Below are positions 985 to 58,708 of a DNA stretch of 64,000 bases, one piece after another; the stretch's first letter is position 1, and each line of letters begins with the position of its first letter. The notes below the pieces were generated by a model, which had not been told where the DNA came from, did not search any database, and was given only the letters and a program-made list of their open reading frames with translations. Both the position numbers and the translations under genes were made by a program. Source of the stretch: Candidatus Staskawiczbacteria bacterium (GTDB lineage Bacteria; Patescibacteriota; Minisyncoccia; Minisyncoccales; Staskawiczbacteraceae); NCBI GenBank assembly GCA_041661545.1, contig JBAZUH010000001.1:467877-531876 (forward strand). Reading direction: 5' to 3'.

Positions 985-1057
985 CTAATAAATTTAACTA
1001 TTTTTATTACTTTATTATACCTGCCTACCGTGGGGCAGGCAACAAATTTTATACACA

Positions 1058-2221: not shown

Positions 2222-2971
2222 GTGGATAAGTCACCTAACAAATTTAAAGAATTTACTAAAGATTTGCTTTTTCCAAAGTCGTGTTTAGGGTGTCAAAAAG
2301 AAGGCCTTTATCTTTGCGATGATTGCCGAACTATTTTAGATATTAATGAATTTGATTATTGTCTTTGTAGCAAAAATCCTATTCGATTTTTGCCCGAACA
2401 AAAAATGGGCACGTGCAATAGGTGCCAAAATAGAAAACTTTCTGGTCTTTATTGTGCTCTTTCTTATAAAGACAAGCAATTAACGAAAAATTTAATTTAC
2501 CAATTTAAATATCCCCCACATTTAAAAGACTTAGCAAAAACATTAGCATCAATTTTAATTGAACATTTTGTGATTTCTGGCAAAAATACAAATGAAATTT
2601 GGGAAAACTCTATTTTGATTCCTGTTCCATTAGATAAAAATAAATTAAAAAATAGAGGGTATAATCAAGCCGAAGAATTAGCAAAAGAATTATCAAAAAT
2701 TTTACAAATTCCAGTAGTTTCTGATGTTTTAACAAAAATAAAACTCACTAAGGCTCAAGCAGAATCTAATAAAGAAGAACGAGAGAAAAATTTGCTGAAC
2801 GCTTTTTGTGTAAACAAAAATTTGGCTAAGTCGGACTTAGCCAAATTTTATAAAGTTTTTTTGGTTGATGATGTTTACACTACTGGCTCTACAATGGAAG
2901 AATGTGCTTCTGTTTTACGCCAAGCCGGTGCCAAACAAGTTTGGGGCATTTGTTTGGCACGCGAAGACTAA
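2222..2971 (+). CDS. comF: ComF family protein (phosphoribosyltransferase domain, competence-associated)
   Basis: N-terminal Cys pairs (CLGCQ..CDDC, CNRC) and a C-terminal PRTase motif VFLVDDVYTTGSTMEE. GTG start. Confidence 0.85.
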   Translation: MDKSPNKFKEFTKDLLFPKSCLGCQKEGLYLCDDCRTILDINEFDYCLCSKNPIRFLPEQKMGTCNRCQNRKLSGLYCALSYKDKQLTKNLIYQFKYPPHLKDLAKTLASILIEHFVISGKNTNEIWENSILIPVPLDKNKLKNRGYNQAEELAKELSKILQIPVVSDVLTKIKLTKAQAESNKEEREKNLLNAFCVNKNLAKSDLAKFYKVFLVDDVYTTGSTMEECASVLRQAGAKQVWGICLARED

Positions 2972-2973
2972 TT

Positions 2974-3366
2974 TTAAATTTTTTCTACAGTTGTCCAGTC
3001 ACCATCTACCCACAACATTACTATTTCAATTGGAAAACCAAATGAACCAATAACTTCTTTGCATTTTTTAAGTTGTTCAATTTGTTCTTCTTTTTCAGCT
3101 GGATTTCCAGCACATCCAAAGTGCCCAACAATTGCTAACTGCTTAGAACCGTGATGATGAACTGAAATTTCAACTCTTTTTTTAATATCATCAATAACTG
3201 CCATATCGCAATCATTTTTTTCGCATAAAATTTTATTTGGACCAGGCTCGGTTATCATGTCTACATAATCAACGCCATAATTTTTTTTCATATAATCTTT
3301 AACCGCATCTTGAACCCTACCGTCCATACAATTTATTGCACACGCAAAAGTTTTATCTGTTGTCAT
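2974..3366 (-). CDS. Hypothetical small protein with beta-carbonic-anhydrase-like CxDxR / HxxC motifs
   Basis: 130-aa ORF with host-like composition. Motifs NCMDGR and GHFGCAG are present. The functional call is tentative. Confidence 0.55.
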   Translation of the reverse strand: MTTDKTFACAINCMDGRVQDAVKDYMKKNYGVDYVDMITEPGPNKILCEKNDCDMAVIDDIKKRVEISVHHHGSKQLAIVGHFGCAGNPAEKEEQIEQLKKCKEVIGSFGFPIEIVMLWVDGDWTTVEKI

Positions 3367-3463
3367 AATTTAAAATTTAATTTTATATAAATAAAAATAT
3401 CATAAAAACTAATATTTTACAAATTGACTTTAGTGTATTTTGGGGTTAGAATAAAAACCACTT

Positions 3464-3548
3464 GGAGGAGTCGCATAGTGGCTATTGCACCGGTCTTGAA
3501 AACCGGAATCCTTCACAGGATTCGTGAGTTCGAGTCTCACCTCCTCCG
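3464..3548 (+). tRNA. tRNA-Ser(UGA)
   Basis: Hand-folded cloverleaf: acceptor GGAGGAG/CTCCTCC, anticodon loop CTTGAAA, long variable arm, T-loop TTCGAGT. Confidence 0.9.
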
Positions 3549-3613
3549 CCTTCGCCTCGCTGAAGCTCGGCTTCGGCGAGACAAAGTCCGCCGAGTTGAA
3601 AAAAATAAAAAAT

Positions 3614-3697
3614 GGAGAGGTCGTATAATGGTTATTACAAGAGATTGCTAATCTCTGCCCCTCACGGGGCCTGTGGGTTCGAGTCCCACCCTCTCCG
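3614..3697 (+). tRNA. tRNA-Ser(GCU)
   Basis: Acceptor GGAGAGG/CCTCTCC, anticodon stem-loop AGAGA-TTGCTAA-TCTCT, long variable arm GCCCCTCACGGGGCC, T-loop TTCGAGT. Confidence 0.9.
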
Positions 3698-3704
3698 CAC
3701 TGAT

Positions 3705-3776
3705 GCGCCCGTAGCTCAACGGATAGAGCGCAGCCCTGCGAAGGCTGAAATACCGGTTCGATTCCTGTCGGGCGCA
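3705..3776 (+). tRNA. tRNA-Arg(GCG)
   Basis: Acceptor GCGCCCG/CGGGCGC, anticodon stem-loop CAGCC-CTGCGAA-GGCTG. The T-stem has one C-T mismatch. Confidence 0.8.
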
Positions 3777-3810
3777 CACTTCGATAGGCTCAGCATAAAC
3801 TTAAAAATTT

Positions 3811-4548
3811 ATGAACTCAAAAAAAACTATCGTCTCGTTTATAATTTTTGTTGCTGTAATAATAGCAGGCGTTTTTGTATTTCAATCATATAAAGAAAAC
3901 AAGATTGAAAATATGTCTGGGTTGCTTAAAAAAATAACTATTGAAGACAAAAAAATAGAAGACAACACAAAGCCTTTTAAAATAAACGTTGTTTACCCCC
4001 AAATACCTGACGCAGAGGAATTTAATCAAATAGCAAGAGACCTTGTTAATAAAGAAATAGATAATTTTAAAAATAATTCTTTAGAAAACGATTCTTCTGT
4101 TGCAGAAACAGATCCAGAAAACTATGCTAGTTATCCCAGAGAATATGAGTTAAATATTTCTTATGAAAAAGGAGATGATTTAGACAACAATATTATTAGT
4201 ATAGTTTTTAACATTTATAGCTTTGAAGGTGGCGCCCATGGAGCTAGCTATTTTATACCGCTAAATTATAATTTAAAAACAAAAAGTAAAATTGCACTAG
4301 GCGATATATTCAAAAATCAGCCAAATTATGTGCAAAAAATATCTGAATTTTGCATTAAAGATTTAACAAGTCAAATAACTTCTAAATTGGGCAATACCGA
4401 GGGCACATGGATAGAACAAGGTGCTGGCCTAGAAGAAGAAAATTTTGCCGTATTTTTAATAAACAAAAAAAATATCGTTTTTTACTTTCCTCAATATCAG
4501 GTAGCTTTTGGCGCCGCCGGCGACTTCCGCGTCTCAATGCCCCGCTGA
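3811..4548 (+). CDS. DUF3298/DUF4163-like (RsiV/PdaC C-terminal-like) membrane-anchored protein
   Basis: N-terminal TM helix, FEGGAHGASY motif and C-terminal QVAFGAAGDF, as in DUF3298-type proteins. Confidence 0.65.
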   Translation: MNSKKTIVSFIIFVAVIIAGVFVFQSYKENKIENMSGLLKKITIEDKKIEDNTKPFKINVVYPQIPDAEEFNQIARDLVNKEIDNFKNNSLENDSSVAETDPENYASYPREYELNISYEKGDDLDNNIISIVFNIYSFEGGAHGASYFIPLNYNLKTKSKIALGDIFKNQPNYVQKISEFCIKDLTSQITSKLGNTEGTWIEQGAGLEEENFAVFLINKKNIVFYFPQYQVAFGAAGDFRVSMPR

Positions 4549-4609
4549 TCCCACACCTGTGCACCGGAGCACGGGTGCGCGCCGATATTATCTAAAATTT
4601 AAAAATACA

Positions 4610-4647
4610 AAAAAACCGTGCTGAGTTTATCGAAGCACGGTTTTTTG
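4610..4647. terminator. Bidirectional intrinsic terminator between convergent genes
   Basis: aaaaaaCCGTGCTgagtttatcgaAGCACGGtttttt. Confidence 0.8.
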
Positions 4648-5010
4648 TTACCTAGAAACGAATATTTTCTTTTTACCAAACTCTAAAAGTATGAGTGATA
4701 TAATACCTAAAATTATGCCAACAATTTTTGAAGCTGTAACTTCTTCCCCAAAAATCAGAACTCCCACAATTGTTAAAATTGTAACATTAAACATTACCAA
4801 AATAATTGAAGCCACTGGAATATCTTCGCCTTCATAACTTTTAATTAAAATTGCCATAGCAATTATATAAAAAATCATTGTTATAAAGTATAAAAATAAG
4901 CTTCCGCTGACTCTAACCCATTCTGTTGCAAATATATCTCCTAAAGTTAAAATTGCTCCTCCTATAAGAAGCATAATTAACGGGGATAATTTTTTCTTAT
5001 TTTTTTTCAT
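4648..5010 (-). CDS. Small 4-TM membrane protein, SMR/DMT-like (paired with the next gene)
   Basis: About 120 aa and highly hydrophobic. The start is placed at MKKNKKKLSPL (cat at 5008..5010), which avoids overlap with the upstream paralog. Confidence 0.55.
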   Translation of the reverse strand: MKKNKKKLSPLIMLLIGGAILTLGDIFATEWVRVSGSLFLYFITMIFYIIAMAILIKSYEGEDIPVASIILVMFNVTILTIVGVLIFGEEVTASKIVGIILGIISLILLEFGKKKIFVSR

Positions 5011-5380: not shown

Positions 5381-7591
5381 ATGATTACGTTATCAACAAA
5401 AATCGAAGAAATTCCAAAAGTTGGAACAGCTTACGCAAAAAAATTAAAAAAATTCGGCATAAAAACTGTGCAGGATTTGCTTTTTTATTTTCCTGCAAGA
5501 TATGACGATTTTTCAGAAATAATTTCTATTAAAAATGCCAAACAAAGATTAGGCGATACTGTTTGTGTGCAAGGAAGAATTACAAATATAGAAAGCACTC
5601 ATACTTTTAAAAAGTTTATGAACTTAACCGAGGTAACCATACAAGACGACACCGCAGAAATTAATGTTGTTTGGTTTAACCAGCCATATTTAGCAAAATC
5701 ACTCAAAGAAGATGATTTTATTTGTGTAGCTGGAAAAATAAGTTTGGGCAAAGATGGTATTTATTTTAACAGCCCAGCATATGAACGAATAAACCAAACA
5801 GCTGAAAAAGAAGAACTTACTCATACCGGTAGAATTGTGCCAGTTTATGCAGAAACAAGAGGTGTTACCTCGCGCTGGCTAAGATATGTAATAAAACCTT
5901 TGCTTTATCAATTTTGTGACCAAATACAAGAATCTTTACCAAAAGAAATCATAAAAAAATATAAATTTTTGCCTATACAAGAAGCTGTTTGGCAGTTACA
6001 CTTTCCCGATTCTTTTGAACATGCAGATGCTGCCAAAGCTAGATTTTCTTTTGAAGAATTATTTTTAATTCAACTTAATGTTTTAAAAGAAAAAATAAAA
6101 CTAATGGTAAAAAAGGCCCACGCCTGCCCAATGGATAATGACTTATTAAAAAAATTTACCGATTCTTTACCATTTCAGCTTACAGATTCACAAAAAAAAT
6201 GTGCCTATGCTATTTTAAAAGATTTAGAAAAAACAGTTCCAATGTCGCGGTTGCTAGAAGGAGATGTTGGAAGCGGTAAAACAGTTGTAGCAACAATGGC
6301 TATATTAAATGTGGTAAAAAGTAAACCAAACCTGCCTGCCGGCAGGCAGGTAGCTTTTATGGCACCAACAGAAATTTTAGCAAAACAACATTTTAAATCT
6401 GTTTCTGAAATGCTAAAACCATTTAATATTACCGTGGGCATGCTAACCGGCAAAGATGCTAGAATTTTTAGAGATGGCGAGGTTTTTGAAGTTTCTAAAA
6501 AAAGTTTTAACGGCGATTTAGAAAACGGGCAAATAGACGTGGCTATTGGCACACACTCTTTAATTCAAAAAAACATAAATTTTAAAGATTTAGCCTTAGT
6601 AGTTTTAGATGAACAACATCGTTTTGGCGTAGAACAAAGGGATCACTTAATAAAAAATAAAAAACTCGTGCCCCATTTATTATCTATGACTGCAACTCCA
6701 ATTCCTAGAACCCTGGCTTTAACTGTTTATGGCGATTTAGATCTATCTTTAATTGATGAAATGCCAGCTAACAGAAAAAAAATAAAAACAGTTATTGTTG
6801 AGCCTTCTCAAAGACAGGAAGCTTACAATTTTATTAAAAAAGAAGTAAGTGAGGGCAAAGGAGTTTTTGTTATTTTCCCTAAAATAGAAAGCGCTGCTTC
6901 AAAATTAGCTGAAACAATAAAAGAAAAAGGCGGAGTTATTGGTTCGGCAGGGTTTAATGTGCAAAACTATTCCCCGCTTTCTTTATCATCACTGGCTATT
7001 AACGAGGTTAAGGCTTTGAAAGAAGAGTATGAAAAATTATCAAAAGAAGTTTTTCCAGATTTACGAATAACTATGCTTCATGGAAAAATGAAATCCCCAG
7101 AAAAAGAAAGAATTATGTTAGATTTTAAGAGAGGCGAAATTGATATTTTACTTTCTACTTCGGTAGTAGAAGTTGGAGTTGATGTTCCAAGAGCTACTAT
7201 TATGATGATTGAAGGGGCTGAACGTTTTGGACTTAGCCAACTTCATCAGTTTCGCGGACGAGTTGGCCGAAGCGATATGCAATCTTATTGTTTTTTATTT
7301 ACCACAGACCCTAGTATGCTAAACAGAAAAAGATTAAAAGCCTTAGTAGAATCAAATAATGGCTTTGAATTAGCTGAAAAAGATTTGGAAATAAGGGGCC
7401 CAGGAAGTCTTTATGGCACACAGCAATGGGGCATTCCCGATATGGCTATGCAGGGTTTAAGTAATATATTTTTAGTTGAAAAAACACGAGCTGCTGCCAA
7501 AGAACTTTTAGAAAAAGACCCTGCGCTAAAAGATTACCCCGAGCTAAAAGAAAGATTAAAAGAGTTTGAAAAAAGAATACATTTTGAATAA
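5381..7591 (+). CDS. recG: ATP-dependent DNA helicase RecG
   Basis: GDVGSGKT (Walker A), DEQHRFG, MTATPIPRT, QLHQFRGRVGR, and an N-terminal wedge/OB region. It carries an in-frame palindrome insertion (LPAGRQV). Confidence 0.95.
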   Translation: MITLSTKIEEIPKVGTAYAKKLKKFGIKTVQDLLFYFPARYDDFSEIISIKNAKQRLGDTVCVQGRITNIESTHTFKKFMNLTEVTIQDDTAEINVVWFNQPYLAKSLKEDDFICVAGKISLGKDGIYFNSPAYERINQTAEKEELTHTGRIVPVYAETRGVTSRWLRYVIKPLLYQFCDQIQESLPKEIIKKYKFLPIQEAVWQLHFPDSFEHADAAKARFSFEELFLIQLNVLKEKIKLMVKKAHACPMDNDLLKKFTDSLPFQLTDSQKKCAYAILKDLEKTVPMSRLLEGDVGSGKTVVATMAILNVVKSKPNLPAGRQVAFMAPTEILAKQHFKSVSEMLKPFNITVGMLTGKDARIFRDGEVFEVSKKSFNGDLENGQIDVAIGTHSLIQKNINFKDLALVVLDEQHRFGVEQRDHLIKNKKLVPHLLSMTATPIPRTLALTVYGDLDLSLIDEMPANRKKIKTVIVEPSQRQEAYNFIKKEVSEGKGVFVIFPKIESAASKLAETIKEKGGVIGSAGFNVQNYSPLSLSSLAINEVKALKEEYEKLSKEVFPDLRITMLHGKMKSPEKERIMLDFKRGEIDILLSTSVVEVGVDVPRATIMMIEGAERFGLSQLHQFRGRVGRSDMQSYCFLFTTDPSMLNRKRLKALVESNNGFELAEKDLEIRGPGSLYGTQQWGIPDMAMQGLSNIFLVEKTRAAAKELLEKDPALKDYPELKERLKEFEKRIHFE

Positions 7592-7938: not shown

Positions 7939-10900
7939 TTACTGACCTGCAAGATATAAGCTGACTAACGACACTAGCGCAGTTATAATTCTTTGATAAA
8001 TATTTATTATGACAATTCTATTTTCTTCTGTAGTTGGAGGAGTGGTTGGTGGAGTTGTTGGCTGTAAATTTGTTGGAGGTGGAGTTGTTGGCTGTGTGGG
8101 TATTTTATTGCTTGTGCCAAATAAGCTTAAAATAGATAATCTAATTTGATTTAAAGATTGGCCTATATAATCAAGTATTGCTTGAGGTGTAGTTTGGGTT
8201 GCAACTGGAATAATCGTAATAATTGGTTGACCTGGCGTTGCCCCACTACTTACGACCGTCTCTGTACAAGCATTGTTTGTACATGCAAATCCAAATTCAC
8301 AATCATCATCAACTGCACACGAGGTTCCTGCTCCGCCCACTGTTACCGTAATCTCTTCTTCACCATAAACAGCCGAGCCATCATTTGCCGTAGCTCGCAC
8401 AGTAACTGTTCCTACATCAGTAGCTGTCAATAAACCTGTTGAAGAATTAATGGTAGCAGACCCTGTTCCATTTGTTACAGACCACGTTACTGTTTTATCA
8501 TTTGCAATTGCTGGTAATACAGATTCGCTCATTTGCAAAGTTGCGCCGTTAACAACTTCTGTAGCATTGCCTGCGCCAGCAACTGTTATGCTTGTTACCA
8601 AGTAATTATAATAATTAACAGTTCCGTTGGCTGTTCCACCAATAGGATTTTCTGAAGGACTATAAACCTCGGCGTCATCAACTATTCCATCGTTATAAGC
8701 AGAATTTTTAAACGTGGCAACGCCTGTTACAATTCCAGTAGAATCGTTATATGTAGAAGCATAAAATGTAGCTGTTCCACCAATTGACCCTGCGTTATAC
8801 GCTGTATCGGTTCCATCTAAAACTCCAAAAACCGCGTTACCGGTTATAATTCCTGTAGCACCATTATATGAAGAAACTCCGGTACCCGTAAAAGTGTTCG
8901 TATCTGTAGTCCCATTATTTTTCTTTATTATTCCTAAGTTTGTTGTAACTGCTCCATTATTTGTGGTAACAGTTTTGCCCGAATTGTTAGTTACAACAGT
9001 CCCCGTATCAGAATTGGTTGTAACAGTTCCGTTGTTGGTGGTTACTGTAAGGTTGTTGGTAGTTACAGTTCCGCTGTTAGTAGTAACTATTCCGTTATTC
9101 GTGGTAACTGATCTACTCAAATTATTAGTTACAACAGTTCCTGTATCAGAGTTAGTTGTGACTGTTCCGTTGTTTGTAGTTACTGTGAGATTATTTGTGG
9201 TAACAATTCCGCTGTTAGTTGTAATAATTCCATTATTTGTGGTAACAGTTTTGCCTGAATTGTTGGTTACAACAGTTCCTGTAGCAGAATTGGTTGTAAC
9301 AGTTCCATTGTTTGTAGTTACTGTGAGATTATTTGTGGTAACAATTCCGCTGTTAGTGGTAACAGTAAGATTATTTGTAACAACTGTTCCCTCAGATGCG
9401 TTTGTAGTAACTATTCCATTGTTGGTGGTAACAGTAAGATTGTTGGTGGTTACTGTGCCTGTGGCAGAATTAGTTGTGACAGCTCCATTGTTTGTAGCTA
9501 CTGTAAGATCGTTTGTAGTAACTGTTCCATCAACACCGTTAGTTGATACAACCCCGCTGTTAGCGGTAATTGTGCTATTGTTGGTTGCTACAACGCCCGT
9601 AGCTCCATTTGAATTAAGCACCGCACTATTTGTTATAATATTTCCTAAGTTTGCGTTAGTTACTGCTCCTAAATTGTTTGTAATGGTTGCATCATATGGG
9701 TTTGTAGTAACAGTTCCTGTAGCAGAGTTGGTTGTAACAGTTCCGTTGTTGGTGGTTACTGTAAGGTTGTTGGTGGTTACGGTTCCGCCCGAATTGTTAG
9801 TTACGACAGTTCCGTTGTTGGTGGTAACTGTTCCATTATTTATGGTTATAATACCTGTAGCACCAACACTACAACTTCCTGTACCAGATAATTCTCCTAC
9901 TGTTCCCGTAATGGTTGTAACGGTACCATTATTATTATAAAGACCAATGCCAGCACCGTTATTAAGCAACAAGGTTCCACTAATATCTGTAATAGTGCCA
10001 ACATTATGTATTCCATAATTACTAGTATTATTATTTAAAGTTCCACTAATGTCAGTTATTATGCCCCCAGAATAATTAAATATTCCAGAAGTGCCATTAT
10101 TATTATTCAAAGTTCCACTAATATCAGCTATAACACCTTCGTTATAAATACCATAGCTGGCACTGTTATTATCAAAGGTTCCTGTAATATCAACAATTGT
10201 CCCTTGGTTTGTGATATAATATCCATTTGAAATAGCCACGTTACCAAGAGTAACCGAATTCCCATTTAGAATGAAAGGGCCATTAGAACCAGCACTAATT
10301 TCTACCGTAGCACCGTCTGAAGGCACTTGATTTTCTTGCCAATTACCTGCGGTGTTCCAATCTGTGGTGTCGCTACCATCCCAATGATAAGTAGGTTCTG
10401 CATCTACTGCTGTTATGTCAATTGTTAAGCCACTTCCATCTAATGCAACGCCCGTTGCCACACTATATCCAGTTCCTGGAGCACTTATGTCAATAGATGA
10501 GATAACCCCAGTCGTATCTACTGAATCCACATTTACTGTGCAACTATTCCCTGATCCACCAGATGTTGAAATGCCCGAACCTACGTTATATCCTGATCCT
10601 GCTGTATTTATTGAAACTGCTGTAACCATCCCAAGAGCTACGCCATTTATATCAACAGAGAAATCGTTATTCCCGCCACCATTTGTTGCTATCATAGACC
10701 CTGTACTATAGCCAGAACCTACAGAAGTCAACGTCCAGGCAGTTACCTCTCCACTCCCGCCCACACTATCAACATAAATAGTTGCATTATACGAACCAGC
10801 TTGAATTGTTAAAGTTTCACCACCTAAATACCCAGAACCCTGAGAATATGTTACTACAGATACAACAGCTCCAACAATACCATCAACACTATCAACATTA

Positions 10901-12708
10901 ACATAACCATTAAAGCTATCCGCATATACATTTAAAACATCACCCTGTTGATAACCAGAGCCCCCCGAGCTAAGAGACACGCTTGTTATTGCGTTAGTGG
11001 CTGAATTAGTTGCTGTTACTATAACGCTACCATCATTATTGCCCCCTGGCACTGAAAAAGTTTGACCTATTGGATAATTACTATATCCCGCATTACTCAA
11101 CGAAACACTCACCAATCCATTTGTATAAACTGGGTCTACAATATAATCAAAATCAACACTGCCTATTACTTTTAAATCAAACAGGTCTGTGGGGGTTTGA
11201 AGATTGGTTAATAAAACTTTTTGAGTTTTGGCTTCAGCAATGTTTTCAAATGTTGCAACTAGTGGGCCGTGAGTAACATTTCCATTTTCATCTGTGTACG
11301 CAGGGTAAACTTCAACTTTACCTGGGTTATTTAGGTTGGTTGCTTTAGCATGAATTGTATTATCTTTTGTATTGTCTAAAATGCCATCAAAGGTAACTCT
11401 TACATATTGATTGTTGGTGATGGTGATATAATTGTTGTCTTGGAATCTTACTGTATCATATATATCAGCTAGTATATTTTGTTGTTCATCTAAGTGGAAT
11501 GCTTGGGAGATAAAGATAATATTAAATACTTGGGTTGATAAATGAGGAACTGTCCATTCAACATAGTCTAGTTTACCATTGTTATCTGTGTCGTAGGCAT
11601 GAAATGCAACCTGCTGATTGCTTTCATTTTCCCATTGGATTTGTATTCTATTCTCTTGACCTACTTTAAATATTTCAGGAATCTTGGTTGAGGCTAATAC
11701 GTCGGTAATTGGAGCTGCTGGGTTTTCTTCTACCGAGGAAACTGTTACTTGTTGACCCAAGTCTGTAATTTCTGAAATTATTTCCGTAGTTTGAGTAATA
11801 TATTCTACAGCTACAAAATTTTCTTCTATGATTGGGTCTTCAGTTATGATTGGGTCTTCGGTTATTTCAGGAGCTACTATTGATTCTTCTATCGAAGTTT
11901 CCTGAACTGTTACTTCAGTTGATATTTCTGGTATTATTGGCTCTTCAGTTATAGTTTCTTCTGAAGTTATTGGTGAAACTTCTTGTTCGGTTGTTGGCAA
12001 AACTTCTTGTTCGCCTAAATTTTGTTCTAATAAAATTTCTGTAGGCAAGGCTTCAACAACTTCAGTTATTTCTGAAACTTCTTGTGATATATCAACATAT
12101 GTGGCCTCTGAGGTTTGAATAATTTCTTGAGCTTCTGAGTTGTTAGTAATTACTTCTGTGGCATTTTCTATAGATTCTGACAAATCAGCCGAGAAGTATT
12201 CATAAACATTATTTAAAAACCCCCAAATATCCTTATAAATAGGACTTAATGAAAACATAAATCCTTGATTATTTGAATTTTTCGATGGATATATTGCTAG
12301 CTGTTGTCGTTGAGCTAAAGATAATATATTTGTTGGCTTAGACAAAAGAATTTTATTTGCTGCATCTTTAGTAACTAAAGCTGTTTTTATATTCTTTGCA
12401 TCTTGGGGAAGCTTTACTAAATATTTTCCCTGCATAACTTCGCTCTTAGCTACTAGAGTAGTATATTTTACTTGCTGGCCTACTACAACTTGCTCTTGCA
12501 GTATGGTAGTTCCTGTTGCTATTTTATCTTTTGGTATTTTAGGAAGAAAAATAAAAACACCTATAATTAAAAACATTATTACAGATAGTGAAAATGTAGA
12601 GAGTAGAATGCGGTTGTTTCGTGTTTTCTTTTTTTGATAATTTCCAACAATATCTACAGAAGATATTTCTTTTGAAAATTTTTGATTTTTTATTTTTTTA
12701 TTTAACAT
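7939..12708 (-). CDS. Giant cell-surface protein 1 (N-terminal TM anchor, Thr/Asn-rich tandem repeats, Big_2-like Ig domain, conserved C-terminal tail)
   Basis: 1589 aa from the ATG at 12708 (the track ORF starts at a TTG at 12717). It has a TM helix LLSTFSLSVIMFLIIGVFIFL, about 46-aa TNNGTVTTNS repeats, a Big_2-like segment (ATLQMSESVLP..TVTWSVTNGTGSATINSSTGLLTA) and a Cys-rich knot CAVDDDCEFGFACTNNAC. Confidence 0.9.
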   Translation of the reverse strand: MLNKKIKNQKFSKEISSVDIVGNYQKKKTRNNRILLSTFSLSVIMFLIIGVFIFLPKIPKDKIATGTTILQEQVVVGQQVKYTTLVAKSEVMQGKYLVKLPQDAKNIKTALVTKDAANKILLSKPTNILSLAQRQQLAIYPSKNSNNQGFMFSLSPIYKDIWGFLNNVYEYFSADLSESIENATEVITNNSEAQEIIQTSEATYVDISQEVSEITEVVEALPTEILLEQNLGEQEVLPTTEQEVSPITSEETITEEPIIPEISTEVTVQETSIEESIVAPEITEDPIITEDPIIEENFVAVEYITQTTEIISEITDLGQQVTVSSVEENPAAPITDVLASTKIPEIFKVGQENRIQIQWENESNQQVAFHAYDTDNNGKLDYVEWTVPHLSTQVFNIIFISQAFHLDEQQNILADIYDTVRFQDNNYITITNNQYVRVTFDGILDNTKDNTIHAKATNLNNPGKVEVYPAYTDENGNVTHGPLVATFENIAEAKTQKVLLTNLQTPTDLFDLKVIGSVDFDYIVDPVYTNGLVSVSLSNAGYSNYPIGQTFSVPGGNNDGSVIVTATNSATNAITSVSLSSGGSGYQQGDVLNVYADSFNGYVNVDSVDGIVGAVVSVVTYSQGSGYLGGETLTIQAGSYNATIYVDSVGGSGEVTAWTLTSVGSGYSTGSMIATNGGGNNDFSVDINGVALGMVTAVSINTAGSGYNVGSGISTSGGSGNSCTVNVDSVDTTGVISSIDISAPGTGYSVATGVALDGSGLTIDITAVDAEPTYHWDGSDTTDWNTAGNWQENQVPSDGATVEISAGSNGPFILNGNSVTLGNVAISNGYYITNQGTIVDITGTFDNNSASYGIYNEGVIADISGTLNNNNGTSGIFNYSGGIITDISGTLNNNTSNYGIHNVGTITDISGTLLLNNGAGIGLYNNNGTVTTITGTVGELSGTGSCSVGATGIITINNGTVTTNNGTVVTNNSGGTVTTNNLTVTTNNGTVTTNSATGTVTTNPYDATITNNLGAVTNANLGNIITNSAVLNSNGATGVVATNNSTITANSGVVSTNGVDGTVTTNDLTVATNNGAVTTNSATGTVTTNNLTVTTNNGIVTTNASEGTVVTNNLTVTTNSGIVTTNNLTVTTNNGTVTTNSATGTVVTNNSGKTVTTNNGIITTNSGIVTTNNLTVTTNNGTVTTNSDTGTVVTNNLSRSVTTNNGIVTTNSGTVTTNNLTVTTNNGTVTTNSDTGTVVTNNSGKTVTTNNGAVTTNLGIIKKNNGTTDTNTFTGTGVSSYNGATGIITGNAVFGVLDGTDTAYNAGSIGGTATFYASTYNDSTGIVTGVATFKNSAYNDGIVDDAEVYSPSENPIGGTANGTVNYYNYLVTSITVAGAGNATEVVNGATLQMSESVLPAIANDKTVTWSVTNGTGSATINSSTGLLTATDVGTVTVRATANDGSAVYGEEEITVTVGGAGTSCAVDDDCEFGFACTNNACTETVVSSGATPGQPIITIIPVATQTTPQAILDYIGQSLNQIRLSILSLFGTSNKIPTQPTTPPPTNLQPTTPPTTPPTTEENRIVIINIYQRIITALVSLVSLYLAGQ

Positions 12709-12785
12709 AAACAACAATATATTCTTATTATATTATCATATAATAATTTTAAAAAGGAAGCAACAAATTTAAATATACAATTTCT

Positions 12786-13736: not shown

Positions 13737-16700
13737 TTATTGTGCAGACTCCCCACCAATATACATACCTAATATAGAAATTAAGGTATTTATAATTTTT
13801 TCATAAATATTTATAACTGCTGATCTATTTTCTTCGGACGTTGGTGTTGATGTTGGTGTTTGATTTAAAGGAAGCGTATTGGGTTGTAAATTATCAGGAC
13901 CAGTTGTTGGTTGAGCGGGCGTTATAAAGTTTAATCTTAACAAACCAATAGATTTTCTAATTTCGTCTAAAGCTTGGCCCATATAGATCATTATTGATTG
14001 AGAAGTAGTTTGAATTGCATCTATTGCTAATGGAACTATTGAAGTTGCTGTGTAAGAACCGCCGCCTCCACCACCAACTGTTGGAACTGTTATGGTGGCT
14101 GTAGCAGTATGGTCTCCGTCTGTGGTAGTTACTGTTATTGTGGCTGTTCCAGCTGATATTGCTGTTACTAATCCTGTGTCGCTAACTGTGGCAACCGATG
14201 TATTGCTTGAAGACCAGGTTACACTTGAGTCTGTTGCATTGTCTGGAGCAACTGTGCTTGTGAGTTGGTGAGTTGCATCAACTAAGATGCTGGCTGTGCT
14301 GTCATCTAATGTAACTCCTGTGACAGAAATATTTAAAGTTGTTACTGTAATTTCTAATTCTCCATATACATTAGAACCATCATTAGCTGTTGCTCGCACT
14401 GTTACTGCTCCTACGCCTGTTGCTGTTAACAACCCAGAAGAATTAATTGTAGCGGTTCCTGTTCCATCTGTTTTTGACCATGTTACAGTTTGGTCTGTTG
14501 CATCTACAGGTAAAATTGATACAGACATTTGTAAAGTTGAGCCGTTAACAACTGTTGTTGCTGATTCTGCGCCAGAGACGGTGATGCTAGAAACTAATGT
14601 ATCTTCTGGTGCAATTTCTGCACAAACCCCATCTGCGCATTCTAATCCAAAATCGCAATCATCATTAATTGCGCAAACCGAGCCTGCACTCATGTCTGAA
14701 CAATAACCATTGCTAGTGCAAAAAGCTGAACTACAATCACCTCCCACTGTACATGCTTCACCATTTGCTGCTGGTGGAGCAGGAGGTATCTCCACGCATT
14801 GATTTGTATCCCATGTATAACCCTCTGAACACAAATATGTTCCACTATAATCGGTTACTGTGGCGCCGGTAAAATCTGGAGGGCCATAAGCAGATCCGGT
14901 CATATCAATTGTTCCATAATTATCTACTGTGCTTGTATATGTTCCACCGTAAATAGTTCCTACGATTTGGTTAATTGCACTTACAACATAATTTCCTGCA
15001 TAGATATCACCCGAATTATCAATCCCCCAACCATCTCCCGTGTTAGTTAGTGTGCCCGTAATATTTGCGATACTTCCATGATTATCAATGCCATAACCAG
15101 TGAGAGTATTTGCAACAGTTCCCGAAATATCAGTAATTGCACCACCATTATAAATACCAGATCCGTTGTCACTATTATTAATGGTTCCTGAAATATTGGT
15201 GATAGTGCCACCATTAAATACGCCGTAGCTAGTATCACCGCTACTATTTATTGTTATAGAAGCAATTGTAACTCCCGTAACACTACCTGAAACATATACT
15301 CCACGGCCACTGCCTGATACATTAATAGAATATGAACTACCTCCACTCAACGTAACGTTGCTTGCGCTAATAACAATACAATTTCCACTAGATACAGACA
15401 AATCTGTGGTTAAGGTGTAAGTACCTGATGAAGTTATTGTTCCACAAGTGCCAACGCTAGTGGTAAGAGGCAATACACACATTGCGTTGCTTAAGTTATC
15501 TGCGCCCAACACTTTATTGATACTTGTACAATCAAAGCTAGTTACAGGGGTAACTGTTCCACTGTTGTTAGTAATTGTTCCAACAATTGTAAGGCCCGCA
15601 TTAAGGTTAAGAGTTCCAGCAGCTTCTACGGTTATATTGCCTGTAATAGTGCCCGCCCCATTAACAACCCCATCATAAACAACAAATCCCACCCCACTAC
15701 TAGTATTATTTATTGTAGCTGTATTGGTGACTGTAATTGTGCCAGAATTATATACACCATAGCCTGCACCACTGTTAGTAACTGTTCCTGAAATATTAGA
15801 AATCGTAGCACCATCATTATTCACAATACCATAACCACTTGCATCGGTGTTTTCAACAGCTCCTGAAATATTGGTAATTGTTCCCAAGTTATAAATACCA
15901 TAGTTATTGGCATTATTGGTGAAGGTTCCCGAAATGTCGGTGATAACAGCATTAGCGTTATTAGTAATACCAACGACACTAGTATTAGTAAATGTTCCTG
16001 AAATATCTGTAATGGTGCCGTAGTTACTAATACCACCATTAGAATTTATAACTGTTCCTGAGATATCGGTGATAATAGCATAAACATTGTTGACAATGCC
16101 ATTACCGCCACCACTAATTGTAAGAGCCCCTGAAATATCAGTTATTGTGCCATAGTTACTAATAATGTTACCTGCACCGCTATTTGTAATAGTGCCCGTA
16201 ATATCAGTAATAATTCCAGAGGTGTCATTATAAATACCAATATTACCAGAACTATTATCAAAAGTTCCGCTAATATTTGTAATTAATCCTTGGTTTAAGA
16301 TAGCTTGACTGGCCGAACCAGTAAAAGAAATCGTTCCGGTTATATCAACAATAGTGCCCTGGTTGATAAGATAATATCCCGATGAACTACTAATAGTTAA
16401 ATTTAAAATTGTGACTGAGGTACCACTTGGAATAACAGGGCTATTCATTGCACTATCTACAATTTGTACTGAAGTGCCCTCTGGAGGGACAACATAATCT
16501 TGCCAATTTGATGAATCGTTCCAATCTGTACTATAAGAACCTACCCAAGTGTAAAGGGGTTCTGCATCTACTGCTGTTATATCAATTGCTAAACCATTCA
16601 TATCTAACGAAACGCCACTTGTTACTGAATATCCAGTTCCCGGGGCACTTATTGAAATAGATGATATAGTTCCAGCAATAGAATCTATATTTATTGAACA

Positions 16701-18911
16701 GTCTGACCCAGAGCCACCAGTTGCTGAATTAGAACCTGTGCCATAGTTGCTTCCCCCAGAAGATAATGAAATACCAGTTACTGTTCCCTGACCTGCTGAT
16801 ATACTAACTTCAAATCCAGAACCACTCCCGCCAGACGTACCAACAAAGCTATTAGAAGAATAATTAGTTCCGCCGTATGATACTGAAAATGATGTTACCT
16901 CACCACTACTGCCCACGCCACTAATGTAAATCGTAGCGTTATAGTCTCCTGAACTAATTGTAACTTCATTGCCCTCAGTATAGCCACTTCCTGCCATATA
17001 GGTACTTGCATCATAAACTACGCCATAAGGTCCATCCACAGATGTTACAGTAACATATCCATCATAATTACCGCCTTGAACAGTCAAAGAATCATTTTCT
17101 TGGAACCCATAACCACCTGAGTTGAGAGAAACGCTTGATATGCTACCTGTTCCTCCAGAAATTTCTGCTACGCTTATACTGCCGTCGCTATTCCCACCTG
17201 GGACTGAAATAACTTGACCTACTGAATAATAGCCATATCCTGCACTATTTAACGAAACACTCACCAATCCACTTGTATAAACAGGGTCTACAATATAGTC
17301 TATGTCAACACTTCCGATAATTTTTAAGTCAAATAAGTCGGTGGGGGTTTGGAGGTTGGTCAATAAAACTTTGTGGGTTTTGGCTTCAGCAATATTTTCA
17401 AACGTTGCAACTAGTGGGCCGTGTGTGACATTTCCGTTTTCATCGGTGTATGCAGGATAAACCTCTATTCTAGCTGGGTTGTTTGGGTCAGTTGCTTTGG
17501 CATGAATTGTATTATCATTTGTATTATCTAAAATGCCATCAAATGTAACTCTTACATATTGATTGTTGGTGATGGTGGTATAGTTGTTGTCTTGGAATCT
17601 TACTGTATCATATATATCAGCTAGTATATTTTGTTGTTCATCTAAGTGGAATGCTTGGGAGATAAAGATAATATTAAATACTTGGGTTGATAAATGAGGA
17701 ACTGTCCATTCAACATAGTCTAGTTTACCATTGTTATCTGTGTCGTAGGCATGAAATGCAACCTGCTGATTGCTTTCATTTTCCCATTGGATTTGTATTC
17801 TATTCTCTTGACCTACTTTAAATATTTCAGGAATCTTGGTTGAGGCTAATACGTCGGTAATTGGAGCTGCTGGGTTTTCTTCTACCGAGGAAACTGTTAC
17901 TTGTTGACCACTGTCAGTTACTTCGGCCACTATTTCGGTAGCTACAGTAGTATATTCTATGGCTACAAATTCTTCTGGAACATTTTCAACCACTGGGGTT
18001 ATTGCTAATTCTTCGGCTGGTGCTTCAATAGGTGTTTCTGTTGATGTTCCAACAGAAGTTTCTGATGATATAGGCTCCTCGGCCTGCACTTCTTCGGCTG
18101 GAACTTGTGCTAACATTTGTTCCGGTATTTCTGGCATTATCAATTCTTGGGTTGTAGCTTCTTCTAAAACTGGGGCTTCTGTTTCTTGCTCACTTGAATT
18201 TTGCTCTAATATAGCCTCAACAATTGGGGTTGTTTCTATTTCTGGTGCAATAGTTGTTGCTTCCAACGATATATCAACATAAGTGGCTTCTGGGGTTTGA
18301 GTAATTTCTTGTGTTTCTGAGTTGTTAGTAACTACTTCTGTGGCATTTTCTATGGCCTCTGACAAATCAGCAGATAAATATTTATAAACATTATTTAAAA
18401 AACCAGATAAAAATTTAAAAGAAGGACTTAACGATGCTGAAAATATTTGATTATTATTATTTGTTGGCAAAATTGCCAATTGTTGCCTTTGTGCTAAAGA
18501 CAATATTTTATTTGGCTTAGATGATAAAATTTGATTGGCTGTATTATTATTAATTGTGCTTACCTTAATATTCTTTGCATTTTGAGGAAGTTTTGCTAAA
18601 TATTTTCCATTTATAACTTCGCTTTTTGCTACTAAAGTAGTATATTTTACTTGCTGGCCTGCTACAACTTGCTCTTGCGGTATGGTAGTTGAACTAGCCA
18701 CCTTGTCTTTGGGTATTTCAGGAAGAAAAACAAAAACACCAGCCACTAAAAATGCAACCAAAGATAATGAAAACGTTGAAAACAGAGTGCGGTTGTGCTG
18801 TTTTTTTTCTTTTTTATACTTATAGGCCTGGACTAACTCATCGGGTATAACTATCTCATCAGAGGATAAATTTATATTAGTATCTATTTTTTTATTTTTT
18901 TCAGAAGTCAT
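13737..18911 (-). CDS. Giant cell-surface protein 2 (paralog of giant gene 1; beta-helix-like ITDISGT repeats, two or three Big_2-like domains, Cys-rich knots)
   Basis: 1724 aa. The N-terminal 560 aa or so are homologous to giant gene 1, including a 326-nt identical block. Repeats of about 20 aa (GTITDISGTxTN), Big_2-like segments and the same type of C-terminal tail. Confidence 0.9.
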   Translation of the reverse strand: MTSEKNKKIDTNINLSSDEIVIPDELVQAYKYKKEKKQHNRTLFSTFSLSLVAFLVAGVFVFLPEIPKDKVASSTTIPQEQVVAGQQVKYTTLVAKSEVINGKYLAKLPQNAKNIKVSTINNNTANQILSSKPNKILSLAQRQQLAILPTNNNNQIFSASLSPSFKFLSGFLNNVYKYLSADLSEAIENATEVVTNNSETQEITQTPEATYVDISLEATTIAPEIETTPIVEAILEQNSSEQETEAPVLEEATTQELIMPEIPEQMLAQVPAEEVQAEEPISSETSVGTSTETPIEAPAEELAITPVVENVPEEFVAIEYTTVATEIVAEVTDSGQQVTVSSVEENPAAPITDVLASTKIPEIFKVGQENRIQIQWENESNQQVAFHAYDTDNNGKLDYVEWTVPHLSTQVFNIIFISQAFHLDEQQNILADIYDTVRFQDNNYTTITNNQYVRVTFDGILDNTNDNTIHAKATDPNNPARIEVYPAYTDENGNVTHGPLVATFENIAEAKTHKVLLTNLQTPTDLFDLKIIGSVDIDYIVDPVYTSGLVSVSLNSAGYGYYSVGQVISVPGGNSDGSISVAEISGGTGSISSVSLNSGGYGFQENDSLTVQGGNYDGYVTVTSVDGPYGVVYDASTYMAGSGYTEGNEVTISSGDYNATIYISGVGSSGEVTSFSVSYGGTNYSSNSFVGTSGGSGSGFEVSISAGQGTVTGISLSSGGSNYGTGSNSATGGSGSDCSINIDSIAGTISSISISAPGTGYSVTSGVSLDMNGLAIDITAVDAEPLYTWVGSYSTDWNDSSNWQDYVVPPEGTSVQIVDSAMNSPVIPSGTSVTILNLTISSSSGYYLINQGTIVDITGTISFTGSASQAILNQGLITNISGTFDNSSGNIGIYNDTSGIITDITGTITNSGAGNIISNYGTITDISGALTISGGGNGIVNNVYAIITDISGTVINSNGGISNYGTITDISGTFTNTSVVGITNNANAVITDISGTFTNNANNYGIYNLGTITNISGAVENTDASGYGIVNNDGATISNISGTVTNSGAGYGVYNSGTITVTNTATINNTSSGVGFVVYDGVVNGAGTITGNITVEAAGTLNLNAGLTIVGTITNNSGTVTPVTSFDCTSINKVLGADNLSNAMCVLPLTTSVGTCGTITSSGTYTLTTDLSVSSGNCIVISASNVTLSGGSSYSINVSGSGRGVYVSGSVTGVTIASITINSSGDTSYGVFNGGTITNISGTINNSDNGSGIYNGGAITDISGTVANTLTGYGIDNHGSIANITGTLTNTGDGWGIDNSGDIYAGNYVVSAINQIVGTIYGGTYTSTVDNYGTIDMTGSAYGPPDFTGATVTDYSGTYLCSEGYTWDTNQCVEIPPAPPAANGEACTVGGDCSSAFCTSNGYCSDMSAGSVCAINDDCDFGLECADGVCAEIAPEDTLVSSITVSGAESATTVVNGSTLQMSVSILPVDATDQTVTWSKTDGTGTATINSSGLLTATGVGAVTVRATANDGSNVYGELEITVTTLNISVTGVTLDDSTASILVDATHQLTSTVAPDNATDSSVTWSSSNTSVATVSDTGLVTAISAGTATITVTTTDGDHTATATITVPTVGGGGGGSYTATSIVPLAIDAIQTTSQSIMIYMGQALDEIRKSIGLLRLNFITPAQPTTGPDNLQPNTLPLNQTPTSTPTSEENRSAVINIYEKIINTLISILGMYIGGESAQ

Positions 18912-21269: not shown

Positions 21270-22442
21270 ATGAAAATCCTATCAATAGAAACATCTTGCG
21301 ACGACACAGGAATTGCCGTTTTAGAAATCTCAAAAAATGGCGATTTTAACATTTTATCAAATATTGTTGCTTCTCAAATAAAAGTTCACCAAAAATATGG
21401 CGGGGTTTATCCTGCAATGGCAAAAAGAGAACACCAAAAAAATTTAATACCAACCTTTATTAAAGCCCTAAGAAAATCTAATTTACTAAAAAATAACGAG
21501 CTAAAACAAAATTTTGATTTTCAAAGTTTAAATAATATTTTAGAACGTGAGCCAGAACTATACAAAAACTTAGTTTCTTTTTTAAAAAAATACACAAAAC
21601 CAAACATAGATTTAATTGCTGTAACTAATGGCCCAGGTTTAGAGCCATGTTTATGGGTTGGAGTTAATTTTGCAAAAGCTATTTCTTTTGCATGGAATAT
21701 TCCCGTTGTGCCAGCAAATCATATTGAAGGTCATATTTTAGTTAACCTTCTAAACCCTAAACCCTACACCCTAAACCCTACTCTATTCCCTGCTATTGCA
21801 TTAGTGGTAAGCGGAGGTCATACGCAAATTATTTTGGTAAAAAAGATTGGCAGCTATAAAATACTTGGCGAAACAAGAGACGATGCAGCCGGAGAATGCT
21901 TTGATAAATGTGCAAAAATTTTAGGATTAGGTTATCCTGGCGGACCAATTATTGCTAAAATGGCAGAAAAAGTCGGTGGGATGTCGGACGTCCCACCGCT
22001 TCCACGCCCAATGATTAATACAAAAGATTACGATTTTAGTTTTTCTGGATTAAAAACTGCAGTTTTATACGCAGATAGAAAAGTTGACCCTTCGACACGG
22101 CTCAGGGCGAGCTATAAACGTAAAATGTCTGCCGAAGTTCAGCAAGCCATAATTGATGTTTTAATTAAAAAAACAATTAAAGCTGTAAAAGATTTTAAAG
22201 TAAAGTCTTTAATTTTAGGAGGAGGAGTTTCAGCTAATCAAGAATTAAAAAAACAATTTCAATTAGAAATTGAAAAAAATAAACTAAAAGTTAAATTAAT
22301 ATATCCAGCGCCTAATTTATCAACAGACAACGGAGCAATGATAGCAGTTGCAGGATTTTATCACCTGCCTGCCGGCAGGCAGGTAAAAAAACTCGCCAAC
22401 TGGAAAAAAATTAATGCCAATGGTAATTTACGAATAGATTAA
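21270..22442 (+). CDS. tsaD: tRNA N6-adenosine threonylcarbamoyltransferase TsaD (Kae1/Gcp)
   Basis: ILSIETSCDDTGIAV, HIEGH, VVSGGHTQI and GGGVSAN. It carries several GC-rich in-frame inserts. Confidence 0.9.
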   Translation: MKILSIETSCDDTGIAVLEISKNGDFNILSNIVASQIKVHQKYGGVYPAMAKREHQKNLIPTFIKALRKSNLLKNNELKQNFDFQSLNNILEREPELYKNLVSFLKKYTKPNIDLIAVTNGPGLEPCLWVGVNFAKAISFAWNIPVVPANHIEGHILVNLLNPKPYTLNPTLFPAIALVVSGGHTQIILVKKIGSYKILGETRDDAAGECFDKCAKILGLGYPGGPIIAKMAEKVGGMSDVPPLPRPMINTKDYDFSFSGLKTAVLYADRKVDPSTRLRASYKRKMSAEVQQAIIDVLIKKTIKAVKDFKVKSLILGGGVSANQELKKQFQLEIEKNKLKVKLIYPAPNLSTDNGAMIAVAGFYHLPAGRQVKKLANWKKINANGNLRID

Positions 22443-27289: not shown

Positions 27290-27318
27290 AAGCAACCGAG
27301 GGGTAGCCCCCTCAATAT

Positions 27319-27356
27319 GGGCGGTCCAACAACGATGTTGGCCGCCCCCTTTTTTT
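27319..27356 (+). terminator. Intrinsic terminator
   Basis: GGGCGGTCCAACaacgatGTTGGCCGCCCcc followed by T8. Confidence 0.8.
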
Positions 27357-27513
27357 GAGTGCGGAATATATTTTTTCCTTACCCGCACGAAACCCCTTCA
27401 CCATTTTTACTGGTGATTTTTTATTACCACAATGACAGCCGAAGGCGCTTCGCAGATATAATTTTGTATTATTTATTACACAGATGAAAATGGTGTGGGG
27501 TTGTTTCCATCTC

Positions 27514-27542
27514 TTGACACGCGTCAAGTTATATGATATAAT
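27514..27542 (+). promoter_or_regulatory. Extended -10 sigma70-type promoter of GC-rich cassette gene 2
   Basis: TTGACA (27514..27519), a 17-nt spacer, then TGaTATAAT (ending at 27542). The -35 element lies in the inverted repeat TTGACacgcGTCAA. Confidence 0.65.
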
Positions 27543-27631
27543 AAAATTATTAGATGAGCATGATCGCTCATTGAAAATTCAACCAACCCCAACCACACCA
27601 ACACCAACCGCCCAAAACAGGGTATACGATT

Positions 27632-28540: not shown

Positions 28541-28563
28541 GAGGTTCTACCCCTCTCACTTAT

Positions 28564-28610
28564 GCGCCCCGAGATCGCCTAGCCAGCGAAATCGAGGGCG
28601 CCCTTTTTTT
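28564..28610 (+). terminator. Intrinsic terminator
   Basis: GCGCCCCGAGAT...ATCGAGGGCGC stem followed by T7. Confidence 0.65.
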
Positions 28611-38075: not shown

Positions 38076-38103
38076 TTGACATCTTTCTATTTTTATGTAT
38101 AAT
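38076..38103 (+). promoter_or_regulatory. Sigma70-type promoter of the GC-rich 503-aa gene
   Basis: TTGACA (38076..38081), a 16-nt spacer, then TATAAT (38098..38103). Confidence 0.65.
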
Positions 38104-38207
38104 TAAACTAGCTCATTTACTCATATAACGTTTTGATAAACACCGTCAGCCTACAGACACCCAACAAACCAACAACACCAACAACCGCCCGCAAGGGCCC
38201 TACCAAA

Positions 38208-39716: not shown

Positions 39717-39763
39717 TCGGCCACCCTCGTAGAGCTGACTCAACCAGTTAGCCTGCGACCTAT

Positions 39764-41948: not shown

Positions 41949-42021
41949 GGGCGCATAGCTCAGTTGGTAGAGCGCGGAGCTTATACCTCCGTGGTCCTAG
42001 GTTCGAGTCCTAGTGCGCCCA
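41949..42021 (+). tRNA. tRNA-Ile(UAU)
   Basis: Acceptor GGGCGCA/TGCGCCC, anticodon stem-loop CGGAG-CTTATAC-CTCCG (anticodon TAT). Confidence 0.8.
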
Positions 42022-42032
42022 CTCGTTAATTC

Positions 42033-58635: not shown

Positions 58636-58706
58636 GCAGGTATCGTATATCGGTATTACCTTAGCTTTCCAAGCTAATGAGAGGGGTTCGACTCCCCTTA
58701 CCTGCT
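58636..58706 (+). tRNA. tRNA-Gly(UCC)
   Basis: Acceptor GCAGGTA/TACCTGC, anticodon stem-loop TTAGC-TTTCCAA-GCTAA. Confidence 0.9.
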
Positions 58707-58708
58707 CA

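Follow-up and report, generated by a model that had tools for sequence, protein, structure and literature searches.

Why is one short, GC-rich palindrome read in the same frame in three unrelated genes of an AT-rich bacterial genome? The question is raised by a 64,000-nucleotide stretch of DNA from a Candidatus Staskawiczbacteria bacterium (contig JBAZUH010000001.1), hereafter the window, in which a perfect palindrome of 20 nucleotides (nt) lies in recG and tsaD and a copy with one mismatch lies in valS. This 20-mer recurs in many phyla and in viral contigs and, beside one subfamily of small nucleases, is found in a compact cassette made of a duplicated tRNA fragment, a GIY-YIG nuclease gene, and an intact tRNA. 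The copies in the window are probably solo satellites of a 20-nt insertional unit whose home is that cassette. The host genome is viewed here through the window, and the cassettes are sampled from the one nuclease subfamily.

Origin of the gene copies

An earlier sequence-only reading of the stretch had located the three copies and held that they share one reading frame within AT-rich DNA. Both points are borne out: the coordinates are correct (Table 1), each copy is read as LPAGRQ or LPTGRQ, and the DNA around them is ~31–36% GC, in a window of ~36% GC overall. No match to the 20-mer, with up to three mismatches allowed, occurs in 100 dinucleotide-preserving shuffles of the window. The same reading called the three host genes essential, which is right for tsaD and valS; recG is dispensable in model bacteria. 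The RecG of the window is 100% identical to a protein from a Candidatus Staskawiczbacteria metagenome-assembled genome (738-kb contig).

Orthologs of the host proteins bear directly on the origin of the LPAGRQ segment. Among 120 RecG orthologs with 78–90% identity, ~85 read VK[NC]GHQVAFMAPTE and have no insert at the palindrome site, and T. maritima RecG (1GM5) has six residues fewer there. Nearly all of the 120 TsaD orthologs compared read GFYH followed directly by KKNT; extra residues at this site are found only in the query, in P0144 (HLPTGRQAKK), in P0123 (HLPRRQAGKK), and in one other. The relatives of ValS read K[DN] joined to KK, again with no insert.

The syntenic loci of four relatives (L121–L124) extend the comparison to DNA. 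The tsaD of the window reads TAT CAC [CTG CCT GCC GGC AGG CAG GTA] AAA AAA, against TAT AAT AAA AAA in the empty L121, and a decayed copy survives there in L122. The corresponding valS sequence is AAG AAC [CTG CCT ACC GGC AGG CAG GCA] AAA AAA, against AAG GAT AAA AAA in the empty state, and here all four relatives are empty. Both inserts measure 21 nt and lie directly 5′ of AAA AAA. The net gain in recG over empty orthologs is 18 nt, and the CAG of the palindrome now encodes a conserved glutamine. LPAGRQ is not ancestral, because both the ortholog alignments and the syntenic DNA show empty sites. On these comparisons, all three window copies are insertions, as the sequence-only reading had supposed, and recent ones; the ancestral proteins lacked the segment.

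A degenerate intergenic copy had also been proposed at 1020–1040. Its first 11 nt equal those of the valS variant, it contains GGCAGG in addition, and it folds as a hairpin of −11.9 kcal/mol. It is more than three edits away from the 20-mer, and mismatch searches do not recover it. The sequence is thus a possible relative of the palindrome, with its membership unproven.

Reading frame and position in the proteins

A raw insertion of 20 nt shifts the reading frame, so only copies restored to frame persist in genes. Wherever the empty site is known, the gene copy amounts to +18 or +21 nt, and three of the four sites adjoin or lie in an A-run, which makes a one-base slip easy. The shared frame extends well beyond the window. 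In 169 kb of Staskawiczbacteria loci all nine copies lie in coding sequence and all are read as LPAGRQ, and the same frame is used by nine of nine independent copies situated deep in long open reading frames (ORFs) of loci with a GC fraction below 0.5 (p=5e-5). Cysteine is encoded in both alternative frames (PACRQA, CLPAGR), in one of which the common C13>T variant creates a stop. By predicted translation, LPAGRQ is the only frame without cysteine and the only one in which C13>T makes no stop. Such strict restoration of frame speaks for translation of the element and against its removal from the RNA.

The recG site holds short GC-rich inserts that differ by lineage, among them LPAGR, HPASAKASAGK, and HAASAKGSGEPK. 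These are dispersed over the RecG tree, and the small clade of the query mixes LPAGR, AASAK, PASAK, and empty alleles. RecG has several further hotspots with recurring peptide families; in the ortholog P0086 the LPAGRQ element occupies a second site, as a copy of 20+1 nt within an A-run. The exact 20-mer is present in each of four LPAGR-type recG alleles (window, L256, L257, L258). Their right junction is the same, with CAG as the conserved glutamine codon, and their left junction has a variable filler of 2–5 nt that brings the net gain to +18 or +21 nt.

The 7-residue segment was expected to lie in a surface loop. In an AlphaFold2 model of RecG (mean predicted local distance difference test score, pLDDT, of 61, moderate overall), both RecG sites fall in helix-to-strand coils. 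The coil at the window copy runs between helix 297–312 and strand 323–328, with pLDDT<50 at residues 316–320. The tsaD and valS copies stand 47–60 nt before the stop codon. Persisting copies are placed in loops, predicted ones in RecG, or in C-terminal tails.

It is improbable that the copies are retained functional motifs, such as an RNA hairpin that serves as intragenic terminator, stabiliser, or RNase target close to the tsaD and valS 3′ ends, a protein-binding operator, or a useful LPAGRQ loop, instead of selfish insertions. As RNA, the 20-mer forms a stable hairpin (−13.9 kcal/mol), two of the three window copies lie close to a stop codon, and the position of the palindrome in the cassette described below would fit an operator or a leader hairpin. 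Against a retained function, the recG copy is mid-gene, none of the three genes has a U-run after the hairpin, the copies are patchy among close relatives, different palindromes occupy the same site, and in many phyla the same 20 nt turn up in intergenic DNA, in copies of tRNAs, and in genes that have nothing else in common. An intrinsic terminator in particular is ruled out, as the coding strand of recG, tsaD, and valS has no T-run after the hairpin.

A second family of GC-rich inserts, CCCTTCGRCA-GCTCAGGGCRAG, is present at 22086–22112 in tsaD and 24231–24255 in valS, where it reads PSTRLRA and PSASSGQ, respectively. The nearest relatives are 3–4 residues shorter at these places, and similar peptides (NPSASSGQE, PSASSGRF) are seen again at further hotspots in RecG and TsaD orthologs.

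Distribution across phyla and viruses

A genome scan with the pattern CCTGCCTRCCGGYAGGCAGG, using one genome per species, found the 20-mer at at least 120 loci in more than 10 phyla. Taxa among the matches listed are the Candidate Phyla Radiation (CPR), Bacteroidota, Omnitrophota, Planctomycetota, Proteobacteria, Ignavibacteria, Nitrospirota, and Chloroflexota, and the sequence is also carried by cultured isolates of Winogradskyella, Flagellimonas, and Olivibacter. The 20-mer is therefore confined to no single lineage. Among the matches listed, the flanks have no mutual similarity and the copies are mostly in short open frames; outside CPR genomes they lie mainly in short-ORF, probably intergenic DNA. 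A viral collection contains 48 stretches with the 20-mer (~55–60 sites), against 2, 0, and 1 stretches for three control palindromes matched in composition and centre, which means that the sequence itself is strongly over-represented.

Records with the 20-mer are mostly metagenome assemblies, which might suggest an assembly or sequencing artefact. Such an origin is scarcely credible, given that the filled tsaD allele is found on 24 contigs from independent assemblies, that cultured isolates carry the sequence, and that the copies preserve frame and show mutational decay. Chance and base composition are ruled out by the empty shuffles and by the three controls, which are 25–50 times rarer.

Most copies stand singly, but nested or tandem units also occur (L020, L026, L059, L132). 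Expansions of this kind were noted in L020, L026, L032, L059, L065, L110, and L132, where CCTGCCTRC / GGCAGGCAG arms flank a central 20-mer to give hairpins of 40–60 nt. Several copies lie within tRNA-like sequence. At L156 2239–2330, ARAGORN predicts a 92-nt tRNA-Met(CAT) whose extended variable arm consists of the 20-mer, and a similar arrangement with a damaged T-arm is seen at L127 ~8590–8660.

The nuclease and tRNA cassette

The cassette is conserved and consists of three successive parts. A duplicated tRNA 5′ fragment of ~30 nt that contains the palindrome is followed by a GIY-YIG ORF of ~80 amino acids (aa) and then by the intact tRNA. The association was examined in both directions. 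In the forward test, a hidden Markov model of small GIY-YIG ORFs was run over 1.36 Mb fetched around 20-mer copies and found 10 such ORFs, 5 of them within 100 nt of a 20-mer and a sixth within ~150 nt, with ~0.4 expected. When the neighbouring ORFs of the loci listed (at least 120) were clustered, GIY-YIG was the only recurrent family, and no recurrent transposase family was present among them.

For the reciprocal test, 80 metagenome loci were chosen solely by similarity to the nuclease protein. The 20-mer is present with three mismatches or fewer in 56 of these 80 subfamily loci, and in ~60 when indel variants such as a 19-mer are counted. Half of the distinct cassette copies (35/70) are perfect. 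The 20-mer is mostly 11–65 nt upstream of the nuclease ATG, and a tRNA is found within 150 nt at 67 of the 80 loci, usually starting 0–20 nt past the stop codon. Tandem forms were also observed: L189 900–1800, L247 1150–1830, and L215 contain two to three GIY-YIG ORFs, each after its own 20-mer, upstream of one tRNA.

The nuclease ORFs match Pfam PF01541 (GIY-YIG) with E values of 1e-12 to 1e-17, and residues Y5, Y15, G17, R25, H29, N30, and E61 (A1) are invariant. The proteins are 77–87 aa long, so that they consist of the catalytic domain alone, without a separate DNA-binding domain. Among solved structures, the nearest are those of UPF0213 proteins and of SLX1 structure-specific endonucleases. 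NCBIfam models gave no match to the cassette ORFs, cultured phage records gave only two weak ones (38% identity, Staphylococcus phages), and plasmids none. Rfam has no family for the cassette leader and finds only tRNAs in the window, which rules out rRNA or a known RNA family as the source of the palindrome; the window contains 19 tRNA genes and no rRNA.

The window has a GIY-YIG ORF of its own, which belongs to one family with the cassette nucleases linked to the hairpin, in a mirror-image arrangement in which tRNA-Gly comes first, the ORF second, and a duplicated tRNA 3′ end last. Separately, the cassette at L054 880–920, which lacks the 20-mer, has another perfect GC-rich palindrome in the D-loop or T-loop of the tRNA duplicate. 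Other palindromes at equivalent positions of the tRNA duplicate, in L054 and at 58956–59002 of the window, suggest that several palindrome families share this niche.

The unit of insertion

The cassettes allow the ends of the insertion to be read. In at least 20 of 24, the sequences flanking the 20-mer are contiguous in the downstream tRNA, which implies an insertion of exactly 20 nt with no target duplication and no deletion. Insertion points are tRNA positions 9, 10, 14, 15, 20, 22, 23, or 39, and they vary within one tRNA type. With 42 cassette copies aligned in the direction of the ORF, A stands at −1 in 38, position −3 holds a purine in 40, and C never occurs at −2. A purine at −1 on at least one strand is found for 116 of 123 genome copies and for 53 of 55 viral copies. 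As read from these junctions, the palindrome is shown to be a discrete 20-nt unit that inserts without target-site duplication and with a bias toward A or purine at the target.

Sequence variants add to this picture. One variant with two substitutions recurs, in either orientation, at five loci that are unrelated to one another, a pattern that favours copying. Of the single changes, G8>A / C13>T is much the most frequent (9 of 70 copies, at loci chosen by nuclease similarity; window position 24573 is an example). It falls at the outer C of GCCGGC and so could, speculatively, mark a hotspot of 5-methylcytosine deamination.

A model for its spread

If the gene copies are satellites of the cassette, their history might be as follows. 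The palindrome would enter as a unit of exactly 20 nt, on the 3′ side of a purine, most often A, in either orientation and without target duplication. It is found in intergenic DNA, in the D, anticodon, and variable loops of tRNAs, and in coding sequence. Gene copies would be kept after frame repair, either as +21 nt with the extra base provided by an A-run or as +18 nt with changes at the junctions, and those in recG, tsaD, and valS would be such solo copies. The nuclease of the cassette, likely structure-specific, may act on the hairpin or cruciform and promote spread in trans, as has been proposed for the REP-associated tyrosine transposase (RAYT) and the repetitive extragenic palindromes (REPs). 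Within the cassette, the palindrome may limit nuclease expression, or it may protect or disrupt the duplicated target. A self-complementary 20-mer may also anneal to a blunt duplex, which, as a speculation, would fit precise insertion at a break. The alternative that the tsaD and valS copies are footprints of an excised cassette was rejected, since a cassette in an essential gene would be lethal.

Several observations weigh against the satellite explanation. The 80 nuclease loci are the nearest relatives of a query that had come from beside the hairpin, so the 70% figure holds for that nuclease subfamily. Most solo copies have no GIY-YIG gene in the surrounding 8 kb. The cassette of the window carries other perfect palindromes (58956–58973 and 58979–59002, each unique in the window) and not the 20-mer. 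The A at −1 could partly stem from D-loop composition plus selection. The four LPAGR-type recG alleles have a similar left filler (CCA (TCA) AAC and the like), so some of them may share one insertion spread by recombination, with fewer independent events as a result. Finally, mobility is deduced from comparative data, and the part given to the nuclease solely from co-location.

In the main alternative, the palindrome moves autonomously, or by a host function unrelated to the nuclease, and accumulates in cassettes either because the tRNA duplicate is a neutral, preferred landing site or because a stable hairpin that separates the tRNA promoter from a toxic nuclease ORF is selected as an expression brake. 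Its position within the tRNA copy varies between cassettes, both orientations occur, and the 20-mer is present in tRNAs or tRNA fragments without a neighbouring GIY-YIG ORF (L021, L156), all of which, with the many solitary copies, would fit such movement. Hairpins upstream of homing-endonuclease ORFs are also known to limit expression (PMC2988022). This explanation nonetheless appears unlikely. The nucleases linked to the 20-mer are only 40–57% identical while the 20-mer is identical across phyla, which calls for a conserved sequence-specific partner, and GIY-YIG is the only recurrent neighbour in the loci listed. An occupancy of ~70% of a target only ~30 nt long would likewise be difficult to attain unless there were targeting or strong selection.

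The satellite explanation can be carried further, to a pan-bacterial “nano-transposon”, which would be the smallest mobile DNA unit known to us. An ~80-aa Slx1-like nuclease that resides at tRNA genes would cut and paste it without target-site duplication, and in many phyla and their viruses it would repeatedly add an LPAGRQ loop to essential proteins and further arms to tRNAs. This extended form is tentative and, as it stands, doubtful.

Relation to known elements

The sequence-only reading compared the palindrome with the Rickettsia palindromic elements (RPEs), which are ~100–150 bp long and confined to Rickettsiales. The likeness lies in behaviour: both are selfish-like palindromic repeats found in-frame in housekeeping genes, translated, tolerated in surface or non-core regions, and patchy among relatives. 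The analogy fails on size and range, as the 20-mer measures 20 nt, is found in many phyla and viral contigs, is out of frame by itself, and is tied to a nuclease/tRNA cassette. The comparison is one of length, range, and behaviour. Closer in size are the small dispersed repeats (SDRs, 21–27 nt) reportedly described by Elhai and colleagues in 2008 from Nostoc and related cyanobacteria, a study listed as ref. 43 in PMC3116915. These are said to be ~20–27 nt long, hairpin-associated, and recognised as insertions by ortholog comparison, and they have no mobilising enzyme known to us. Their sequences and lineage differ, and by description alone they are set apart from the 20-mer; we know of no report of a nuclease/tRNA cassette for SDRs.

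REPs and REPINs are short, dispersed, GC-rich palindromes whose single-gene partner, RAYT, is flanked by the same palindrome and is proposed to act in trans (PMC3116915). The 20-mer resembles them in being short and GC-rich, in its many solo copies, and in a single-gene partner that carries the same palindrome. It differs in that the partner is a GIY-YIG protein and not an HUH tyrosine transposase, and in its mostly single 20-nt units, its identity across phyla, and its entry into genes and tRNAs. Movement by a RAYT or by other single-strand transposition of the IS200/IS605 type is very improbable. IS200/IS605 elements insert without target duplication beside a short target motif. The 20-mer does likewise (A at −1), is probably mostly extragenic outside CPR, and has in REP–RAYT linkage a precedent for its association with one gene (PMC3116915). 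Neither a transposase nor TnpA (Y1 HUH) is among the recurrent neighbours of the loci listed, however, copies are, apart from some nested or tandem units, mostly singlets and not inverted doublets, and REPs differ between genomes and RAYT lineages (PMC3116915). Miniature inverted-repeat transposable elements differ in having terminal inverted repeats, a length of 50–500 bp, and a target duplication, which at least 20 of 24 cassettes lack.

The cassette itself recalls free-standing GIY-YIG homing endonucleases such as T4 segB, which lies in a tRNA cluster (PMC2988022; PMC13096335). Shared features are an ORF in or beside tRNA genes, partial duplication or amplification of the tRNA region, and upstream hairpins as a regulatory theme. 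The cassette protein differs in being ~80 aa long, of the UPF0213/Slx1 branch, without a DNA-binding domain, and chromosomal in many phyla, and no dispersed 20-nt satellite is described for Seg genes. Clusters of GC-rich palindromes are known from AT-rich organelle genomes, as in Fusarium (PMC7218506) and Volvox (PMC2670323), and coding palindromes from Nematomorpha (PMC6649704). They too spread GC-rich sequence in AT-rich genomes, at times within coding sequence, but they are lineage-specific, variable, and usually longer, with no linked nuclease/tRNA cassette.

Significance

Neither the sequence nor LPAGRQ turned up in the literature searched, and papers on CPR palindromes, GIY-YIG genes with tRNAs, and YhbQ/UPF0213/COG2827 gave no account of the cassette. 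As far as found, the new features of this repeat are its size, its identity across phyla, its exact insertion without target-site duplication, and its GIY-YIG/tRNA partner. It is among the smallest insertion units known to us. If the linkage holds, a dispersed mini-palindrome would be paired with a nuclease in a new way, GIY-YIG/UPF0213 standing in for the HUH transposase. If true, the explanation would also give a function to the very common, uncharacterised ~80-aa “GIY-YIG nuclease family” ORFs beside tRNA genes, and would account for a class of small in-frame, GC-rich inserts by which CPR proteins grow and diversify at recurrent loop hotspots. The identity of the 20-mer across phyla makes it an easy genome-wide marker and a simple biochemical substrate. 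The inserts also bear on ortholog alignment, structure prediction, and the annotation of tRNA fragments.

Other features of the window

Table 1. Palindrome copies, host genes, and cassette components in the window
Feature	Positions	Strand	Location	Details
recG	5381–7591	+		RecG-like, 736 aa
tsaD	21270–22442	+		TsaD-like, 390 aa
valS	22446–24632	+		ValS-like, 728 aa; tRNA-synt_1 and Anticodon_1 domains in syntenic relatives
Exact palindrome CCTGCCTGCCGGCAGGCAGG	6331–6350		inside recG	reads (N)LPAGRQ(V); NLPAGRQV
Exact palindrome CCTGCCTGCCGGCAGGCAGG	22364–22383		near tsaD 3′ end	reads HLPAGRQV
One-mismatch copy CCTGCCTACCGGCAGGCAGG (G8>A)	24566–24585		near valS 3′ end	reads NLPTGRQA
Possible decayed relative CCTGCCTACCGTGGGGCAGGC	1020–1040		intergenic	18 nt past the stop of minus-strand ORF 1058–2182
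Intact tRNA-Gly(TCC)	58636–58707	+	directly precedes the GIY-YIG ORF	
GIY-YIG nuclease ORF	58709–58966	+		85 aa; PF01541, E=3.6e-12; 35% identical to the L052 protein
Duplicated tRNA-Gly 3′ end (GGGGTTC ... GACTCCCCTTACCTGCTCA)	58948–59023	+		T-loop split by two other palindromes

Two giant ORFs on the minus strand, 7939–12717 (1592 aa) and 13737–18911 (1724 aa), stand between recG and tsaD, and one of them has Big_2 domains. The distance from recG to tsaD is only 2–3 kb in the relatives L122–L124, so the giant ORFs look like a lineage-specific insertion of surface-protein genes. The relative L121 has a diversity-generating retroelement signature (RVT_1 and bAvd) adjoining recG at 2947–4723, which is not at that position in the window.

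Islands of high GC fraction are found at ~25500–28600 (0.61) and 38100–39750 (0.55) in a genome of ~33% GC; they are not rRNA. ORF 25493–27289 has one LysM domain, and ORFs 27632–28540 and 38133–39716 have no Pfam match. The islands may be of foreign origin or result from chimeric assembly. At 41949–42022, ARAGORN predicts a tRNA-Ile with the anticodon TAT, an uncommon bacterial way of decoding AUA.

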